From NCBI GenBank assembly GCA_964585425.1, contig CAZPDI010000001.1:4804-68803 (forward strand): a stretch of 64,000 nucleotides of DNA, given 5' to 3'. Below, one piece after another: positions 3,194 through 44,940 of this stretch. The notes beneath the pieces were generated by a model. The model worked only from the letters and a program-made list of their open reading frames with translations. It searched no databases and was not told the DNA's origin. Numbering within the stretch: position 1 is the stretch's first letter; every line of letters begins with the position of its first letter. The translations under genes and the position numbers were made by a program. This stretch comes from an uncultured Candidatus Saccharibacteria bacterium. Its GTDB lineage: Bacteria; Patescibacteriota; Saccharimonadia; UBA4664; CAYXHD01.

Positions 3194-3279
3194 AACAAGC
3201 CGTTTTTTAGATAGAACCCCGCCCCAGCCCCTGGCTTAAAGGCAAAAGATATGCTAGAATCTGCTAGTTACCCAACCAC

Positions 3280-3365
3280 GCGCGAGTGGTGGAATGGTAG
3301 ACACGCTGGCTTCAGGTGCCAGTGGGGGCAACCCCGTGGAGGTTCAAGTCCTCTCTCGCGCACCA
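3280..3365 (+). tRNA. tRNA-Leu (anticodon CAG), class II with long variable arm, CCA encoded
   Basis: Acceptor stem GCGCGAG/CTCGCGC. Anticodon stem CTGGC/GCCAG with loop TTCAGGT. Variable arm GGGGGCAACCCCGT. T arm GGAGG-TTCAAGT-CCTCT. Discriminator A followed by CCA. Confidence 0.9.
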
Positions 3366-3380
3366 TTTATGAATATTTAG

Positions 3381-5117
3381 TTACATACGCGGGACTAATG
3401 TACTGCGGACCGTCCAGTTTTGAACATTATAAAATCGATCGGCGGCAGTTATGATCTCGCCATCACTAATGCCCTGCACCGTTTCCTCGGTTACATACAG
3501 GTAGTTTGGCGTATAGAGCATAACTGCCGGATCATCGGCACTCCACGTGTCTAGGAAGCTTTTAAGGCGTACTTTGCGTACATTTGGGTCAGTGGTGGCG
3601 CGCGCCGAAACCAGGGCTTTATCGGCCACCGGGCTACTGTATTGTGCAACGTTTAAACCAGGAGCCTTAGCCTGCGAGGAATGCCAGTAGGGATACGGAT
3701 CTAAATCGGCACCGGCATTGAGCCCATACAACAACATGTCGTAATTACGGGGCGTAATATAACTACGCTGCAAGCTGGCGACGTCCAGAACCTCAACATC
3801 CAAAGCAATACCAACAGCAGACAACTGCTTAGTAAGACGCTCGGCGACTGCTTGATAATCATCATTCTGGGCAGTCACCATACTCAAGGTGAGCTGCTTT
3901 CCGTCCTTAGTTCGCACCGAATCGCCACTTTGTGTCCAGCCAGCCGAATCCAACAACTTTTTGGCTTCCTGGATATTCTGTTTAGGTATTTTGTAATCAC
4001 CGGCAGCTGGCAGCTGACTCGTCAAAGCTGGCACAACCAGCGGCTTAGCCTGATCCTGCAAAATAGATGAAATAATTTCTTGACGATCAACGGCCGCAGC
4101 GATGGCTGATCGAACGTTAACGTCGCTCAAAATTGGACTCTGATTCCTCAAGAATAAGGCGACTTCCTCGGGGATCGAAAGGGCATGTAACGTGGTGCCG
4201 CGACCATAGCTGGACCCCGAAGTATTTGCCGAGCGCGCCATACCCATAACTTGATGCTTGCGGAAAGCCGATTGCAGCTCCGCCTGGGTGGCATAGACGC
4301 GCAATACGATACTGTCCAACTTGGGCTTACCACGGAAGTAGTTAGCATTGGCCTGCAAGGTAACTGAGCCGTTTTCGGTATCAAAGTTAGTCACCGCAAA
4401 GGGCCCGCTCCCCACCGGTACCTGGTTAAAGTCGGAGACCCGCAAATCAGCGGCGGCCGTAGTCTTGAGTATGTGTTCCGGCAAAATGCCCACGGTGGTT
4501 GAGTTTAAAAACGCGTCGTAACGTACCGGCAGCGTAACTACCACGGTTGTCGCATTAGGCGTAGCAACCTCAACGCCCTTCCAGGCCGAGGCCATTGGCG
4601 ATCGCGTATCCGGATTTTGAATACGATTAATGGTAAACGCCACGTCGGCCGACGTGACCGGCTGATCATCCTGCCACTTAGCATTGGGCTGGAGCACAAA
4701 CGTATAGGTTCGCCCATCAGGACTTACCGTCCAGGATTTAGCTAGGTCACCCTCAATTTCGGCCTTATGGTTATAGCGAGTCAGGCCAGAGAACACTAGT
4801 CGCGCAGCATCGGCATTGGCGCCGCTATCTGCCAGAATTGGGTTGATGGTAGTAATGCTACCGGTTATACCCTCGGTATAGGTGCCGCCCGGCTGGCCAG
4901 CTAAACGTAAATAAAAACTGCGTAGGGACCTGAGCTGCAAAAAGCTCACGATGCTAATAAGGGCCACGACGCTCAGCCACAACACCGTCACGCGGCGCAC
5001 CGGCTTATTGTTCTTCCAAGGCGTTACGCCCTCATGTTGAACCCGCTCCCAAAAATGTCGAATAGTAAGCGACAAGCGCTCTCTGGTTCTATGTAGGGAT
5101 CGTGGCGTTAGCCCCAT
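3381..5117 (-). CDS. ABC transporter substrate-binding protein, family 5 (peptide/nickel type), membrane-anchored
   Basis: 578 aa with an N-terminal TM anchor. SBP_bac_5-like signature: LAKSWTVSPDGRTYTFVLQPNAKWQDDQPVTSADVAFT. Confidence 0.8.
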   Translation of the reverse strand: MGLTPRSLHRTRERLSLTIRHFWERVQHEGVTPWKNNKPVRRVTVLWLSVVALISIVSFLQLRSLRSFYLRLAGQPGGTYTEGITGSITTINPILADSGANADAARLVFSGLTRYNHKAEIEGDLAKSWTVSPDGRTYTFVLQPNAKWQDDQPVTSADVAFTINRIQNPDTRSPMASAWKGVEVATPNATTVVVTLPVRYDAFLNSTTVGILPEHILKTTAAADLRVSDFNQVPVGSGPFAVTNFDTENGSVTLQANANYFRGKPKLDSIVLRVYATQAELQSAFRKHQVMGMARSANTSGSSYGRGTTLHALSIPEEVALFLRNQSPILSDVNVRSAIAAAVDRQEIISSILQDQAKPLVVPALTSQLPAAGDYKIPKQNIQEAKKLLDSAGWTQSGDSVRTKDGKQLTLSMVTAQNDDYQAVAERLTKQLSAVGIALDVEVLDVASLQRSYITPRNYDMLLYGLNAGADLDPYPYWHSSQAKAPGLNVAQYSSPVADKALVSARATTDPNVRKVRLKSFLDTWSADDPAVMLYTPNYLYVTEETVQGISDGEIITAADRFYNVQNWTVRSTLVPRM

Positions 5118-39977: not shown

Positions 39978-40006
39978 TTGCATTATGTCGCAAAATATGA
40001 TTAAAT
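39978..40006 (+). promoter_or_regulatory. Candidate promoter of GC-rich unit 3a
   Basis: TTGCAT (39978-39983), a 17-nt spacer, then TTAAAT (40001-40006) with TG two nt upstream. The aaatNtgaTTAAAT block is shared with the unit 3b promoter. Confidence 0.5.
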
Positions 40007-40040
40007 AGTATGGTTCTGCTACCTATCCCTAAGGATTCCA

Positions 40041-40415
40041 ATGAATGCACCTGCCCGTCCCATGCCCGACATCACCGATGTGGAGCTGACCAAGAAGATC
40101 ATCGATGAACGTGTGAAGCACCACAACCTGCGCCATGAAGATGGTGAAGCGATCTGGATGGTAGTCACGGCCATCGGTCATGCCATCAAGATCGGTGATC
40201 CTCAGTACAGCCCGATGATCGACCGCAACGTCACGGGGCTGCGCAACGAGGCGAGGCCAGGCGAAGTTCCGGTCATCTTGCTGTCCGACCTGAACCGCAT
40301 CTTCTGTGACGACACGTTGATACGCGAGCTGCAGCGGGTGTTCCCGAGCATCGTCAATGATGCGGCGCGCGTTGCCTGCTGGAAGTTCCGCAACTGCATG
40401 TACGGATGCGACTGA
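40041..40415 (+). CDS. GC-rich ORFan, 124 aa (variable partner of module copy 1)
   Basis: ATG follows the SD TAAGGA. GC3-rich codons. It ends in the junction GAC TGA TC ATG. Confidence 0.55.
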   Translation: MNAPARPMPDITDVELTKKIIDERVKHHNLRHEDGEAIWMVVTAIGHAIKIGDPQYSPMIDRNVTGLRNEARPGEVPVILLSDLNRIFCDDTLIRELQRVFPSIVNDAARVACWKFRNCMYGCD

Positions 40416-40417
40416 TC

Positions 40418-40627
40418 ATGCGCCTTCGGATCCCCTGGCGCAAGCAAACCGTGCCGCCGCCACCCGCGACTGTCGCGATGAAGGCTGCGCCCCTGGTGCC
40501 GCCACCTCATCGCCGGATGACGGCCGAAGAACGCGCTGCGTGCTGCCAAGATCAGAGGAAGATCAAGCTGCGTGCTGCCAAGCGTTGTCGGCGCAAGGCC
40601 CGAAAGCGCCGACTGCGCAACAAGTAA
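40418..40627 (+). CDS. Pro-rich / strongly basic mini-protein, 69 aa (conserved partner, copy 1)
   Basis: The start was set at ATG 40418, matching the paralog junction TGATCATG; the track start is 40406. It shares the core VAMKxAPLxPPPxRRMTAEERAA and a K/R tail with ORF 42234..42467. Confidence 0.55.
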   Translation: MRLRIPWRKQTVPPPPATVAMKAAPLVPPPHRRMTAEERAACCQDQRKIKLRAAKRCRRKARKRRLRNK

Positions 40628-40647
40628 CCCCCGTGAGGCGGATCGCC

Positions 40648-40680
40648 GAAAGGTCCCTCTTGCGGGGGATCTTTCGTTAT
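40648..40680 (+). terminator. Terminator hairpin, divergent copy of the conserved island-3 terminator
   Basis: GAAAGGTCCC-tcttgcg-GGGATCTTTC followed by GTTAT. Confidence 0.55.
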
Positions 40681-40687
40681 GGTGATA

Positions 40688-40716
40688 TTGATTTATACCT
40701 GTAAATGTGATTAAAT
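40688..40716 (+). promoter_or_regulatory. Candidate promoter of GC-rich unit 3b
   Basis: TTGATT (40688-40693), a 17-nt spacer, then TTAAAT (40711-40716) with upstream TG. Confidence 0.5.
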
Positions 40717-40750
40717 TTCCCTATTCCGTTTCGAGTCCAAAGGAGAGACC

Positions 40751-40984
40751 ATGACGGACGCACATGCCACGGCCGTCTCCACGGTCTATTTTTGGCTCGA
40801 GTACGAGTTGGGTATCGATAATCCTGATCACGTTGAACTGACCATGATTATCGAGAATGGCTGGCTGCGCTATCGGTGCCCGGCCCACGACATCACCCCG
40901 CTTGAAATCGCCCGCCTCGAAGCTGCCTGCCGGCACCACGCCCATTCTCTTGAAGTGCACCTGAACCTGGAGGTTCAATCATGA
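40751..40984 (+). CDS. GC-rich ORFan, 77 aa
   Basis: ATG follows the SD AAAGGAGAG. ATGA overlap at 40981-40984 couples it to the next ORF. Confidence 0.5.
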   Translation: MTDAHATAVSTVYFWLEYELGIDNPDHVELTMIIENGWLRYRCPAHDITPLEIARLEAACRHHAHSLEVHLNLEVQS

Positions 40985-41733
40985 TTGTCCACAAGCACGA
41001 CATCGATACCGCAGCTCGTCTGGCCGCCAAAGAGCGGTTCATGAACGAGTCATGGCTGGATGATCGCAAGGTGCGATCATGGTTCGCTTGGCTCGGTATC
41101 CGTCCTGACGGTCATCAAGCATTGCGCATCTTGCGCGCTGTGCATGCCACGGCTGCCACCGTGCGTGAGTACAAGATCCACCATCGCCACACGCGCTTCG
41201 GTCGAACGATGCGCCTGCAGCGCCGGCTCCCACCGTGGCCCGCCAAGTACGCGGATACCCCGGTCATCAATGCCGCGCAGATGCTGCTGGTGACTCAGCG
41301 CACGGACTACATCCACCTCACGGAGCTGACGCGACCAATTACGGGTACCAGTTATCGGCACGGCGACAATCGACGCGTCGATATGGAAACGTGCAAGATG
41401 TTCCTGGAGAACGTGCAGAGCAAGTTCATGCGCGAAGCCGTTTGGTCAGATGAGTTGGTATGTATCGAGAGCTTTGCGCGGCTCGGCCTGACGCCCGATG
41501 AGCTGCTGGTGGCCGAGATGGCTCTGATCCGTCTGATGAGTAGGTATCGGCACGAAAAGGGGCTTACCTGGTATCTGATGCCGACCTATGGCAGCCGGAG
41601 CCGCCGCTTGCACACCCTCACCATGGGTGATTTCTTGAACATCACCCGATTTCTCCAACCCAACTATGGCGACACCGACATGGAGTTTCTCATGACGCTG
41701 GCCGATCGTCTGCGTTCGCGACTTGCGACCTGA
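40981..41733 (+). CDS. GC-rich ORFan, 250 aa, Arg/His-rich
   Basis: Translationally coupled to the 77-aa ORF. No motif recognised. Confidence 0.55.
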   Translation: MIVHKHDIDTAARLAAKERFMNESWLDDRKVRSWFAWLGIRPDGHQALRILRAVHATAATVREYKIHHRHTRFGRTMRLQRRLPPWPAKYADTPVINAAQMLLVTQRTDYIHLTELTRPITGTSYRHGDNRRVDMETCKMFLENVQSKFMREAVWSDELVCIESFARLGLTPDELLVAEMALIRLMSRYRHEKGLTWYLMPTYGSRSRRLHTLTMGDFLNITRFLQPNYGDTDMEFLMTLADRLRSRLAT

Positions 41734-41753
41734 TCTCGACACATACCCTCGCG

Positions 41754-41796
41754 GGGGCTTTTCTACGGAAAGGTCCCTGCGGGGGATCTTTCGTTT
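41754..41796 (+). terminator. Conserved 43-nt terminator element, copy A
   Basis: The element reads GGGGCTTTTCTACGGAAAGGTCCCTGCGGGGGATCTTTCGTTT. It contains the mini-hairpin CTTTTC-tacg-GAAAGG plus a 10-bp stem GAAAGGTCCC/GGGATCTTTC and a T-rich tail. Confidence 0.65.
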
Positions 41797-41801
41797 ATAG
41801 C

Positions 41802-41830
41802 TTGCAATATCAATACTTTAAATGTATAAT
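41802..41830 (+). promoter_or_regulatory. Candidate promoter of GC-rich unit 3c
   Basis: TTGCAA (41802-41807), a 17-nt spacer, then TATAAT (41825-41830) preceded by TG. Confidence 0.65.
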
Positions 41831-41859
41831 TTGTAAATCCGTACGACCAAGGAGTACCC

Positions 41860-42231
41860 TTGACCGAAGCCAATACCCTACCCAAGGCCGATGCCAGCGT
41901 CAAGCTGTCCGACGACATCATCGCAAGCTGCTACGAGGGCTGCGATCCCCGTGAGTCCGATCGAGCTCGCGGCTGCATCGCCGCCCTCAAGGACCTGCTA
42001 CGGCTCGCCGAGAAGACGCCGAACGACGCGCGCTACCAGGAGATCCGGGAGTTCGACGCCGACACCCTGACCGTTGGCCAGTTCATCACCCTGATGTACC
42101 TGCCGGCGATGTCGCCGAATCAGCCCCGCCAGCTGATGCGCAACGTGCGTAGCAACTGGGGGCGACTCAACCAGCGAGTTCTCATCGAGCTGCGAGACAA
42201 GCTGGATGAGCGCTACGAGCCCCAGGACTGA
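41860..42231 (+). CDS. GC-rich ORFan, 123 aa (variable partner of module copy 2)
   Basis: TTG start 5 nt after the SD AAGGAG. It ends in the same GAC TGA TC ATG junction as 40041..40415, but the two proteins show no visible similarity. Confidence 0.5.
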   Translation: MTEANTLPKADASVKLSDDIIASCYEGCDPRESDRARGCIAALKDLLRLAEKTPNDARYQEIREFDADTLTVGQFITLMYLPAMSPNQPRQLMRNVRSNWGRLNQRVLIELRDKLDERYEPQD

Positions 42232-42233
42232 TC

Positions 42234-42467
42234 ATGGGCATCTGGAACTCTCGGCGCAAGAAGACGACACCACCGCCACCTCCTCCTGCACCTCCTCCGC
42301 CGCCCGCGGCTGTCGCGATGAAGACTGCACCACTGGCGCCGCCACCGCGTCGCCGAATGACGGCCGAAGAACGCGCCGCTCTCAAGCTGCCCAAAGTGAA
42401 GGCCCGGCAGCGCCTGGCCAAGAACCGACGCGCCAAGGTCAGGAAGCGCAAGCACAAGAAGTCCTGA
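42234..42467 (+). CDS. Pro-rich / strongly basic mini-protein, 77 aa (conserved partner, copy 2)
   Basis: Paralog of 40418..40627. It contains PPPPPPAPPPPPAAVAMKTAPLAPPPRRRMTAEERAA and the tail KARQRLAKNRRAKVRKRKHKKS. Confidence 0.6.
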   Translation: MGIWNSRRKKTTPPPPPPAPPPPPAAVAMKTAPLAPPPRRRMTAEERAALKLPKVKARQRLAKNRRAKVRKRKHKKS

Positions 42468-42479
42468 TCGCGCCCCTGT

Positions 42480-42523
42480 GGGGACTTTTCTACGGAAAGG
42501 TCCCTGCGGGGGATCTTTCGTTT
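42480..42523 (+). terminator. Conserved 44-nt terminator element, copy B
   Basis: The element reads GGGGACTTTTCTACGGAAAGGTCCCTGCGGGGGATCTTTCGTTT. It is identical to copy A except for one inserted base. Confidence 0.65.
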
Positions 42524-42534
42524 TTAAATGAGAA

Positions 42535-42558
42535 AGACCCAGGATTTCTCCTAGGTCT
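42535..42558 (-). terminator. Hairpin with GAAA tetraloop terminating the minus-strand 143-aa cassette
   Basis: On the minus strand: AGACCTAGGA-gaaa-TCCTGGGTCT, a 10-bp stem with one G-U pair, followed by TTCTCATTT. Confidence 0.55.
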
Positions 42559-42603
42559 AGGGGCCAGGGATTCGACTACCCTGCACCCCCATCCACAACC
42601 TGT

Positions 42604-43035
42604 TCACGCCTGCATATCAGGCGGCAAGGTGAAGGCGTCAGGGTACGAGATGACCAGATCATTATCGTTCAACGGATAGATCGCGCCCCAGTCCGTAAGC
42701 ACGAACCGTTCGCAGAACGTCTGATCCACAGCACGAGCATACGCTGGTATATCACGCAGATCGTCTTTCGTCAGCTCTTGCCCCCAGTAAAAGGTCCCTT
42801 TGTCATGAGAGTTGTGAGTAACGACCTTGTCATCAGGACATATGAATGTGTAGATCTCTGTGAAATCAAAGCCGATAGCCCCTTGCTGGTGCTTAACCCC
42901 GAGAGGGTCACGGCCTGCCGTGACGATGGCATCAACTCGAGACAACACGCCAGTCGGGTATATGTAGCGAGCCACCAACAACTTGGTGGCGACCACGTCG
43001 ATGTGCTTGGTCTGGCTTTCACCCTCGGTATCCAT
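42604..43035 (-). CDS. ORFan, 143 aa, intermediate GC, own promoter and terminator
   Basis: ATG follows the leader ..CCAACCAACGAAGGGG, which carries the SD. No motif recognised. Confidence 0.5.
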   Translation of the reverse strand: MDTEGESQTKHIDVVATKLLVARYIYPTGVLSRVDAIVTAGRDPLGVKHQQGAIGFDFTEIYTFICPDDKVVTHNSHDKGTFYWGQELTKDDLRDIPAYARAVDQTFCERFVLTDWGAIYPLNDNDLVISYPDAFTLPPDMQA

Positions 43036-43076
43036 GATGCGCCCCTTCGTTGGTTGGACTTGAAAAGGATAGTTGC

Positions 43077-43105
43077 ATAATACTCCCGGCAGTTCACTGC
43101 CGCAA
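43077..43105 (-). promoter_or_regulatory. Candidate promoter of the 143-aa cassette
   Basis: On the minus strand: TTGCGG (43105-43100), a 17-nt spacer, then TATTAT (43082-43077). Confidence 0.45.
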
Positions 43106-43119
43106 GAGTAAGCGGTTTA

Positions 43120-43545
43120 CTAGAGCCCCTCTATAAATGTCTCGATAAAGCTATTCAGCTTGCTGCCAACTCGAGTAATGATCGAGTCTCGCTCCAAAAT
43201 CTTGGGCTTAGCTATTAATGTAGCGGCAATCTCATTGCGGCGTGGCTTGCGGCCAGTGAATAAGTAATCGTTAATCAGTTTTTGCAATTCATCGGTCATT
43301 AGACCTTCTTCAACACACATGGCCTCAAAAGCTTTAGCGCGCTCGACATTCCAGAACGAATCAAACTCACCAGCTACATCTTCAGGATTCTCGATCTTGG
43401 GTAGCGATCGGGCAATAAATTTCTCAATCAGCTCGCGCTTGCTACGCAGCACGGCATTGCCCATAAGCGTGTTATTAAGATTATCGATTATCTGAGCTTT
43501 TTTTGATCTTCCGACATAACCCCTCGCTTTGTGTCTATTGTACAC
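43120..43545 (-). pseudogene. hsdR: Fragment resembling the C-terminal domain of a type I restriction enzyme R subunit (EcoR124-type HsdR)
   Basis: 141 aa. LRSKRELIEKFIARSLPKI..FDSFWNVERAKAFEAMCVEEGL..LINDYLFTGRKP..KLNSFIETFIEGL matches my memory of the HsdR C-terminal domain. The helicase and nuclease body is absent. Confidence 0.55.
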
Positions 43546-43577
43546 GTTTTCTTCTAATGTTTATATCTGTCGCCATC

Positions 43578-43606
43578 TTGACATATCGCTTGTGCTAGCA
43601 TATTAT
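43578..43606 (+). promoter_or_regulatory. Strong orphan promoter in the hsdR-fragment / NYN intergenic gap
   Basis: TTGACA (43578-43583), a 17-nt spacer, then TATTAT (43601-43606). Confidence 0.6.
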
Positions 43607-43612
43607 ACGTAT

Positions 43613-43690
43613 ATCCAATGGTTGTACCATTCAACTGTCGGGGAATTACATCCGAGAGCGACCTTCTTTAAAGAGGGTCGTTATTTTTTT
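43613..43690 (+). ncRNA. Candidate small RNA of about 78 nt (promoter to intrinsic terminator, no convincing ORF)
   Basis: Downstream of the promoter above lie an internal hairpin AATGGT-tgt-ACCATT and a terminator CGACCTTCT-ttaa-AGAGGGTCG (43659-43680). The run TTATTTTTTT follows. Confidence 0.4.
43659..43690 (+). terminator. Intrinsic terminator (plus-strand orientation)
   Basis: A 9-bp stem with one G-U pair, loop TTAA, then TTATTTTTTT. It overlaps the stop codon of the minus-strand NYN gene. Confidence 0.6.
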
Positions 43691-44229
43691 GCGCGGTACA
43701 CCAGCGGCTTGCCCCAAATATCCTCACTTATTCTCAAAATATCAATGTAGCCATCGCCCCCTGTAAGAAGTTCACTAGATACATTATTTTTAGATGATAC
43801 AATATATACTTTTTTATCACGATTGCGGATAAAACTCACAAGTTCGAGGAAGTCTGAGTCGCCACTAAACAGGACGGCCACATCGTACGAATTGACTAGG
43901 GCTACAGCATCAATGGTAAGCTCAACATCCATATTACCCTTTTCAATAATTAATCCACTACCAGTTTTTATCTGCTTGAGTGGTTTTTTGCGGACTATAT
44001 ATCCCATTCTTTTTTGCAGTGCAGTGTAGAAAGAATGCTTATTCGAAACACTATACTCTCGAGTACCAACCTCGGGATAGGCATCATAATAGTAAATCTC
44101 TAATACACTTGCATGGTATTTTACTTTCAGATAGTTTTTGAGTTTTTTCATATCTAAAAGAACCCCTTTGGTCTTTTGGGCCTGCCAGAGATTAGAGGCA
44201 TCAATAAAAACGTGAACTCTTTTATTCAT
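43681..44229 (-). CDS. NYN-domain (LabA/DUF88-like) protein
   Basis: The start was moved to Met19 (44229). VHVFIDASNL..GNMDVELT..FSGDSDFLELV matches the LabA-like NYN pattern. Confidence 0.65.
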   Translation of the reverse strand: MNKRVHVFIDASNLWQAQKTKGVLLDMKKLKNYLKVKYHASVLEIYYYDAYPEVGTREYSVSNKHSFYTALQKRMGYIVRKKPLKQIKTGSGLIIEKGNMDVELTIDAVALVNSYDVAVLFSGDSDFLELVSFIRNRDKKVYIVSSKNNVSSELLTGGDGYIDILRISEDIWGKPLVYRAKK

Positions 44230-44393
44230 ATCATTAATTATACGGTATTTGTTCGGTATTAGTCGAGGCCGTAATGTCCCCACCGTGTCCGTTCTTCAAA
44301 GTGGGGTTTTTGAGCTCGAGAAAGTCGATGATGGGTTGGATACCTACCTTGGCCGAAGTAGTAACTTCTAGGCCTTTATCATTTATGTAGTGC

Positions 44394-44422
44394 TTGCTTT
44401 TTTATAAGTTTTATGCTAGTAT
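44394..44422 (+). promoter_or_regulatory. Candidate promoter of GC-rich cassette 4
   Basis: TTGCTT (44394-44399), a 17-nt spacer, then TAGTAT (44417-44422). Confidence 0.45.
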
Positions 44423-44457
44423 ATACGCATCTTGGCCGTCTAGCAAAAGGAAACATC

Positions 44458-44868
44458 ATGCCAAGCGCACAGACCATCCTCCCTCTGACCGCCGAACAGG
44501 TGGCCATGCCCGTGACCGCTGCCATCCTCACCACGGAGGACATCATCGGCGACCACGGGAGGTACCCGAAGGACATCGCTCACAGCTTGTCCACCATCTG
44601 CGAGTTCCTGCAGGAGGTCAAGCGGGAGGTCAAGCAGAGTCCAAGGGCCTACCTCGGCTGGTTGGAGTTGGCGGATGAGAACGGGGTGCGCTTCAGCGAG
44701 CGCGATTACCCCAGCATCACCGCAGGGTTCCTCCTGGCCGTGATGGAATCCAGCGCCGCCTGGGGCACCGTGATGAAGCACGGTCCGGAGGACTACTGCT
44801 TCGAGCAGCTGAACATGCTGAGGACGGCGGTCTACGCCCTCCTCTTCAAGCGGTCGCTGGCTGGCTGA
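44458..44868 (+). CDS. GC-rich ORFan, 136 aa
   Basis: The start was moved to ATG 44458, behind the SD AAAAGGAAA; the track start 44413 lies in the promoter. No motif recognised. Confidence 0.55.
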   Translation: MPSAQTILPLTAEQVAMPVTAAILTTEDIIGDHGRYPKDIAHSLSTICEFLQEVKREVKQSPRAYLGWLELADENGVRFSERDYPSITAGFLLAVMESSAAWGTVMKHGPEDYCFEQLNMLRTAVYALLFKRSLAG

Positions 44869-44893
44869 GGTTCTTCCTCCGCCAGCACCACGC

Positions 44894-44940
44894 CCCACTC
44901 GGGGTCTTCTACGGAAGACTCCGAGTGGGTTTTTCGTTTA
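44894..44940 (+). terminator. Intrinsic terminator with C(UACG)G tetraloop closing cassette 4
   Basis: CCCACTCGGGGTCTTC-tacg-GAAGACTCCGAGTGGG forms a 16-bp stem with one G-U pair, followed by TTTTTCGTTTA. It is convergent with typA. Confidence 0.75.

Follow-up and report, generated by a model that had tools for sequence, protein, structure and literature searches.

Within the 64-kb stretch of DNA analyzed here (the window), which has a G+C content of about 48% and whose closest relatives are Candidatus Saccharimonadales/Saccharibacteria MAGs, a promoter and an intrinsic terminator on the forward strand lie between two genes carried on the reverse strand, namely a gene for a LabA-like NYN protein and the remnant of a type I restriction hsdR gene. 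The features of the locus are as follows.

43120 to 43545, reverse strand: remnant of a type I restriction hsdR gene (141-aa ORF), holding only the C-terminal half of the EcoR124_C domain (Pfam PF12008, positions 134 to 260 of 260)
43578 to 43583, forward strand: -35 hexamer TTGACA of the small RNA promoter
43601 to 43606, forward strand: -10 hexamer TATTAT, ending 6 nt before the first base of the RNA
43613 to 43690, forward strand: predicted small RNA of about 77 to 78 nt, starting at purine A43613 and ending in the U-tract
43615 to 43641, forward strand: helix P1, 43615-43624 paired with 43632-43641 (one A-C mismatch in the window), loop 43625-43631 UACCAUU
43642 to 43655, forward strand: near-invariant unpaired linker, GGAAUUACAUCCGA in the window (family consensus GGUAUUACAUCCAA)
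43656 to 43683, forward strand: helix P2, the terminator hairpin, 43656-43666 paired with 43673-43683, with top CCUUC/GAGGG (family CCCUC/GAGGG)
43684 to 43690, forward strand: U-tract (T7) of the terminator, complementary to the last two Lys codons of the NYN gene
43681 to 44229, reverse strand: gene for a LabA-like NYN protein (PF01936, predicted ribonuclease, 182 aa), convergent with the small RNA, its stop codon inside the base of P2
44237 to 44266, reverse strand: candidate NYN promoter TCGACT-18-TATAAT, the -10 ending 7 nt before the ATG

The original prediction of a near-consensus promoter followed by an intrinsic terminator, read as a candidate small RNA of about 78 nt, was correct as an observation. 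The promoter, with its 17-nt spacer, matches 11 of 12 consensus positions, is the best site between 38 and 50 kb, and is one of only three 11/12 sites on either strand of the whole window. A terminator scan reported a stem at 43657-43682 (11 pairs, G-T allowed) followed by ATTTTTTT, whereas the 9-bp stem originally described (43659-43667 with 43672-43680, loop TTAA) and its T7 run can be read directly from the sequence about 50 nt downstream of the promoter. The NYN ORF ends at 43681, and so its stop codon (43681-43683) and its two last Lys codons lie inside the base of the terminator stem and the T-tract. The 6-bp hairpin AATGGT-tgt-ACCATT (43618-43632) that had also been noted exists and appears in the single-sequence minimum free energy fold of the 79-nt RNA, which is more stable than that of shuffled sequences (-26 kcal/mol, z = -3.8), but it is not the helix conserved across relatives, and the consensus fold costs -22.3 against -26.0 kcal/mol on the window RNA. 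The 17-codon ORF in the interval (ATG at 43618) exists as well, but its ATG is absent from most relatives. Single-genome scans of this kind yield many false positives (21 promoter and 23 terminator sites found against 12 and 13 expected in 12 kb), and a single promoter-plus-terminator pair could arise by chance, but its presence at the same place in 80 of 80 relatives rules chance out.

To assess conservation, we first recovered identical copies in two short Logan contigs, which were uninformative, and then scanned one genome per GTDB species with the NYN protein, retaining the best 80 of 265 confirmed loci (NYN 55-64% identical). These came from Saccharimonadia, many Parcubacteria/Paceibacteria and ABY1 lineages, Doudnabacteria, and one cultured isolate of the Bacteroidota, Niastella vici DJ57. 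An nhmmer search with the 155-nt intergenic region of the window hit the segment just 3' of NYN, on the opposite strand, in almost all loci tested (75 of 80 at E ≤ 0.1), and blastn reached about 90% identity over 50 nt to loci whose NYN protein is only about 60% identical. Visual inspection showed the same layout everywhere: TTGAC(A/T), a 16-18 nt spacer and TATA(A/C)T, then six nucleotides and a purine, a 10-bp hairpin, the string GGGUAUUACAUCCAAGGG, a GC-rich hairpin, a U-tract and the NYN stop codon.

An alignment of 78 sequences supported two helices, P1 (alignment columns 3-12 with 25-34) and P2 (columns 49-59 with 66-76), in agreement with RNAalifold. Of 1587 cells, 97.2% form standard pairs, and 12 of 21 pairs show changes on both sides (6 of 10 in P1, where 95% of cells pair, and 6 of 11 in P2, where 99% of cells pair). 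None of 500 shuffles reached the observed values, and sliding the 3' partners by 1-3 columns dropped pairing to 38-63%. The alignment contains 269 G-U cells, and only 81% of cells would pair if the opposite strand were taken as the RNA. The hairpin is followed by a T-rich run only on the forward strand of the window (at least 4 T in the 6 nt after P2 in 70 of 78 sequences), whereas on the NYN strand it is followed by CCCUUGGAUG. The RNA is therefore encoded antisense to NYN.

The promoter is likewise conserved in both score and position. In 72 of 78 relatives the best -35/-10 pair within 60 nt upstream scores at least 9/12, against 17.5% of shuffled controls, and in 56 of 78 it scores at least 10/12, against 2.3% of controls. 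The -35 is TTGACT or TTGACA in 49 of 78, the -10 is mostly TATACT or TATAAT, and in 65 of 78 the -10 ends exactly 6 nt before the first column of the RNA, which is a purine. That these hexamers would not be conserved in any relative had been named beforehand as grounds for rejecting the small RNA, and this condition clearly fails. A DnaA-box-like 9-mer abuts the -35 in 21 of 78 relatives.

A covariance model built from this family gave a single strong hit in the window (43613-43689, 76.3 bits, E = 5e-19; next best 13 bits) and exactly one hit of 64-95 bits in each of the 80 genome loci, in every case directly 3' of and antisense to NYN, with no second copy in about 600 kb of flanking sequence. 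To remove ascertainment through NYN, we scanned a metagenome collection for a 20-mer of the linker and obtained 116 loci, of which 110 had enough sequence. Of these, 97 have a convergent NYN within 120 nt, while 13 carry a complete RNA (70-92 bits, with promoter) without an adjacent NYN. In two of these metagenome loci, L174 and L201, the stop codon of a DNA methylase gene abuts the terminator where NYN normally sits, and in another, L161, NYN lies about 200 nt further away. NYN was never seen without the RNA among the 80 closest homologues examined, whereas a 33%-identical NYN on a Sinorhizobium plasmid has no such RNA. This NYN subfamily is absent from IMG/VR and from GenBank phages, and a search of viral contigs with the 16-mer GGGTATTACATCCAAG gave 25 hits that all score 24 bits or less with the covariance model and lack NYN, which by our rough estimate is about the number expected by chance.

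No known RNA family accounted for the element. Against Rfam 15, only a tRNA passed gathering thresholds in the whole window, permissive local scans of the window copy and of a Parcubacteria-type copy gave best scores of 18.5 and 23.1 bits against thresholds of 55, and 15 relatives returned only a tRNA and a SAM riboswitch elsewhere. Literature searches on NYN in Patescibacteria, NYN and antitoxins, structured-RNA surveys and the linker sequence itself found nothing relevant within the limits of the libraries searched, and the family is apparently undescribed. A coding function was rejected, as the 17-codon ORF is not conserved and tblastn matches of a 71-aa ORF called in L110 (a locus on a 1.59-Mb contig, described below) only reflect nucleotide conservation.

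The bases of both helices covary freely, but the unpaired linker and the top five pairs of P2 are nearly invariant across class-level divergence. Simple cis-antisense pairing does not require this, because complementarity to the opposite strand is automatic, and the pattern instead suggests sequence-specific recognition by a conserved partner, probably a protein. No RNA partner was found: matches to the complement of the linker with up to 3 mismatches in the window are at chance level (4 found against 5 expected), and although RNAduplex picks a pairing of the linker with the NYN "NMDVE" codons (UGGAUGU) in 44 of 78 loci, duplex energies equal those of shuffled linkers (z = -0.3) and synonymous codon use at D and V does not differ from the rest of the gene, and we rejected this pairing as a by-product of two conserved sequences. 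The NYN protein is the obvious candidate partner, but this is an inference.

The protein belongs to the LabA-like NYN family (PF01936/COG1432), with a Pfam score of 85.4 bits against a cut-off of 24.2 (E = 7e-24). It keeps all the expected acidic residues, with D10, the E96-K-G-N-M-D-V-E103 motif, D107 and the G123-D-S-D-F127 motif (and thus D101, E103, D124 and D126) invariant in 30 homologues, and the catalytic motifs were likewise invariant across the 80 loci. An AF2 model (pLDDT 91) has a predicted PIN-like NYN fold, with best PDB matches to the LabA-like NYN protein VPA0982 (2qip, TM 0.72/0.80) and the NYN endoribonuclease domain of MARF1 (Foldseek E = 2e-10 for 2qip and 6e-6 for 6fdl), while PADLOC models for NYN-family defense candidates match only weakly. 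In the window and in about 15 relatives, a TATAAT-like -10 ends 5-8 nt before the NYN ATG, which may suggest a leaderless mRNA that would leave the 3' end as the accessible control point.

No neighboring gene is universally conserved, but restriction-modification genes recur, lying in the flanks of 14 of 80 genome loci and of 19 of 59 metagenome loci of 5 kb or more. In L110 the order is hsdM-NYN-[sRNA, antisense]-hsdS-PIN_12-hsdR, and recurrent flanking families include an HSDR_N_2 + N6_Mtase methylase directly upstream of NYN, a type I S subunit downstream, an N6_N4 methylase, and a Schlafen-type helicase fused to an S24 peptidase. The hsdR fragment of the window is 44% identical to the C terminus of the intact HsdR in L110, and the window therefore looks like a decayed operon in which only NYN and the small RNA remain intact. 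In Niastella the module (NZ_LVYD01000041.1, at about 135.7 kb; locus L058, RNA at 4561-4635) sits beside a large serine recombinase and a TraD-like ATPase in a low-GC stretch, that is, on a mobile element.

We conclude with high confidence that positions 43613 to 43690 are a genuine gene for a structured small RNA with its own sigma-70-type promoter and intrinsic terminator, although the transcript itself is inferred from sequence. The original interpretation, a cis-acting antisense regulator of the NYN gene in a type I toxin-antitoxin-like or attenuating arrangement, was only partly supported: a discrete gene of about 77 nt and its convergent overlap with the NYN 3' end are conserved, making such a relation plausible, but the RNA is not the orphan it was called, being tightly linked to NYN, and simple antisense pairing leaves the linker unexplained. 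We propose, at a confidence of about even, that the two genes form a toxin-antitoxin-like module in which the RNA keeps the NYN RNase in check. What the analysis establishes is the conserved promoter, the covarying helices, the terminator, the strand, the tight convergent linkage to NYN, and the position of the stop codon within a hairpin that no U-tract follows on the NYN strand, such that any complete NYN mRNA must carry sequence complementary to at least P2, and probably to the whole small RNA. What we infer is that NYN transcripts read into the small RNA gene, that the small RNA pairs with this 3' region and lowers NYN expression through duplex cleavage and decay, as in the bsrG/SR4 class, that the linker and the apex of P2 are recognized, and bound or cut, most likely by NYN itself as a second, type III-like layer of neutralization, that NYN is an active nuclease harmful when unchecked, and that the module rides in type I restriction-modification operons, defense islands and mobile elements, in the window outliving the operon around it. 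The asymmetry between NYN, never seen without the RNA in the loci sampled, and the RNA, sometimes seen without NYN, is what a toxin and its antidote would produce, though persistence of the RNA without NYN in about 11% of RNA-ascertained loci could equally mean an NYN-independent function.

Other explanations remain possible to differing degrees. A purely protein-binding, type III-like antitoxin or cofactor, bound or cleaved by the NYN RNase through the linker and the P2 apex so as to inhibit or direct the enzyme, with the convergent overlap reflecting only compact gene packing, is a tentative alternative; it would fit a conservation pattern typical of protein recognition, an RNA more conserved than the protein and the retained catalytic residues, but there is no tandem repeat array, the genes are convergent rather than cotranscribed, and the conserved stop-codon overlap makes antisense pairing unavoidable if both RNAs are made. 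We consider it unlikely that the RNA is a trans-acting or housekeeping regulator with the linker as its seed and NYN as a linked processing or turnover enzyme or a hitchhiking neighbor. Invariant single-stranded segments are typical of seeds, 13 of 110 loci keep an intact, promoter-bearing RNA without an adjacent NYN, and the DnaA-box-like site suggests physiological regulation, yet no complementary site above chance was found in the window, linkage to NYN is far tighter than expected for a trans-acting RNA, and the patchy distribution associated with mobile elements is not that of a core gene.

Less likely still is primary regulation of the restriction-modification operon, either as an antisense RNA against the NYN-hsdS intercistronic region or as a convergent-promoter roadblock setting the ratio of hsdM to hsdS/hsdR, with NYN as an accessory gene. 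The position of the RNA in L110, its abutment to the methylase gene in L174 and L201 and the recurrence of restriction-modification genes speak for this reading, but about 70-80% of loci show no such gene within the flanks, and the window has no functional operon even though both the RNA and NYN are intact. That the feature is no RNA gene at all, but a chance promoter-like match beside a bidirectional terminator of NYN or a small coding ORF, is a remote possibility already contradicted by the comparative data, as the promoter is conserved in position, both helices covary, G-U pairs fix the strand and the U-tract follows the hairpin only on the small RNA strand.

The proposed module works most like the type I toxin-antitoxin systems with a convergent, 3'-overlapping antisense RNA, such as Bacillus subtilis bsrG/SR4 and txpA/RatA, in which the RNA has its own promoter and intrinsic terminator and the overlap is at the 3' end of the toxin mRNA rather than at the ribosome-binding site. 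At the level of DNA geometry, the cis-encoded antisense overlap is present in the window and in relatives, where the NYN stop codon lies inside the base of P2 or the U-tract, though transcript overlap is inferred. However, classical type I toxins are small (usually under 60 aa) hydrophobic or membrane peptides, and the partner here is a 182-aa soluble NYN-fold protein, the overlap with the coding sequence is only a few nucleotides, and the invariant unpaired segment is conserved across a whole phylum, whereas type I antitoxins are usually conserved only narrowly. Type III systems (ToxIN, CptIN and TenpIN), which are associated with phage defense, similarly pair an endoribonuclease with a structured, sequence-conserved RNA that could bind it, but their antitoxins are tandem repeats upstream of and cotranscribed with the toxin; here, TRF found no repeats in 43000-44500, the RNA is single-copy, convergent and has its own promoter, and the predicted nuclease has an NYN/PIN-like rather than a ToxN-type fold. 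Restriction-linked latent RNases such as PrrC in the EcoprrI hsd locus have a ribonuclease gene embedded in a type I hsd operon, an arrangement that holds here in L110 and in a minority of loci, while the window keeps only a 3' hsdR fragment, but PrrC combines an ABC-ATPase with an anticodon nuclease and is not known to have an RNA partner, and most NYN-sRNA loci are not in such operons. A survey of PIN-like nucleases (Matelska et al. 2017, PMC5499597) noted that these are in some cases coupled to type I restriction-modification in which "antitoxin elements are missing", and an RNA antidote would explain such cases. The same review lists the function of the LabA-like NYN family as unknown and mentions no associated small RNA, and our other searches found no paper on one.

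Patescibacteria (CPR) are a large, mostly uncultured part of bacterial diversity for which, to our knowledge, almost no regulatory RNAs have been described. The family presented here, with 190 or more examples, a covariance model and a defined promoter and terminator, nearly always lies, in the loci sampled, tail-to-tail with a LabA-like NYN gene in Patescibacteria, plus one mobile element in Niastella. RNA-regulated nucleases and toxin-antitoxin modules are already known, and what is apparently new here is the RNA family. If the pair is a toxin-antitoxin or abortive-infection module, it would assign a role to a widespread NYN subfamily, explain the missing antitoxin of PIN-like nucleases coupled to type I restriction systems, and add a hybrid, type I and type III-like architecture to the toxin-antitoxin repertoire, an idea that is directly testable because Niastella vici DJ57 is a cultured isolate. 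More speculatively, and in our view doubtful although not excluded, the single-copy convergent RNA may act both as an antisense RNA and as a sequence-specific inhibitor or decoy of the nuclease in a restriction-linked abortive-infection or addiction device, which would be the first such system defined for Patescibacteria, with a DnaA box tying expression of the RNA to replication status in some lineages. Finally, as an unexplained curiosity that has no statistical power given the observed base frequencies, on the NYN-sense strand the linker reads AUG followed by a stop codon in 76 of 78 sequences by our reading of the alignment.

To assess what lies upstream of the sRNA promoter, we examined the 60 nt preceding the sRNA in 78 relatives, and found a DnaA-box-like 9-mer (TGTGGATAA or TTATCCACA, or a near variant) in 21 of them (loci L018, L023, L024, L027, L029, L035, L036, L038, L039, L043, L044, L046, L062, L065, L066, L071, L073-L075, L079, and L082). 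In most of these loci the 9-mer abuts the -35 hexamer, starting 44-47 nt before RNA +1, whereas it is absent from the corresponding region of the window (43540-43577). This frequency is far above chance and, though inferred from sequence alone, suggests DnaA-dependent control of the sRNA in Parcubacteria-type loci. On the opposite (-) strand, the NYN start codon lies 5-8 nt downstream of a TATAAT-like -10 element in the window (44229-44266; TATAAT at 44242-44237, ATG at 44229-44227) and in about 15 relatives, an arrangement which implies, by inference from this spacing, a leaderless NYN mRNA in many loci. Within the sRNA itself, the invariant linker, when read on the NYN-sense strand, gives AUG immediately followed by a stop codon (UAA, UGA, or UAG; window 43646-43651, columns 39-44 of the sRNA alignment A3) in 76 of 78 sequences by our reading of the alignment, and lies about 11 nt after the GGAGG of the hairpin arm. 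This could be either a start-stop mini-ORF or a coincidence, and base frequencies provide no statistical power here.

In the relative L110 (6445-13770), an intact type I R-M operon contains two embedded PIN-superfamily nuclease genes in the order hsdM-NYN-[antisense sRNA]-hsdS-PIN_12-hsdR, in which the gene caller annotated a 71-aa ORF over the sRNA region. Several metagenome loci carry intact sRNA copies (70-92 bits, with promoter) but no adjacent NYN, namely L174 (6017-6092) and L201 (1878-1953), as well as L125/L173, L124, L135, L140, L151, L180, and L212. In L174 and L201 the stop codon of an HSDR_N_2 + N6_Mtase methylase abuts the sRNA terminator, as if NYN had been precisely lost. A further metagenome contig, L199, carries two sRNA copies (1-64 and 3273-3348) and two NYN-like genes, one 58% and one 30% identical to the query, suggesting duplication or tandem modules. 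The NYN-sRNA pair also occurs in a cultured Bacteroidota isolate, Niastella vici DJ57 (locus L058, 4001-6340; NZ_LVYD01000041.1), where it sits next to a large serine recombinase and a TraD-like ATPase in a stretch of 32-35% GC that is probably an integrated mobile element. Its occurrence in this isolate offers an experimental entry point.

In the window, the low-GC NYN island is flanked by GC-rich islands (57-60% against about 48%) at 40000-42700 and 44413-44930, with similar GC jumps at about 10-12 kb and 55-58 kb. The flanking islands carry paralogous small Pro/Arg-rich ORFs (40406-40627 and 42234-42467, 87% identical over 86 nt), while a Pfam search returned no hits for the larger ORFs. 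The small ORFs are followed by near-identical long terminator-like hairpins, CCCYSYGGGG...TTCTACGGAA...CCCTGCGGGGG-ATCTTTCGTT, at 40654, 41746, 42473, and 44894.
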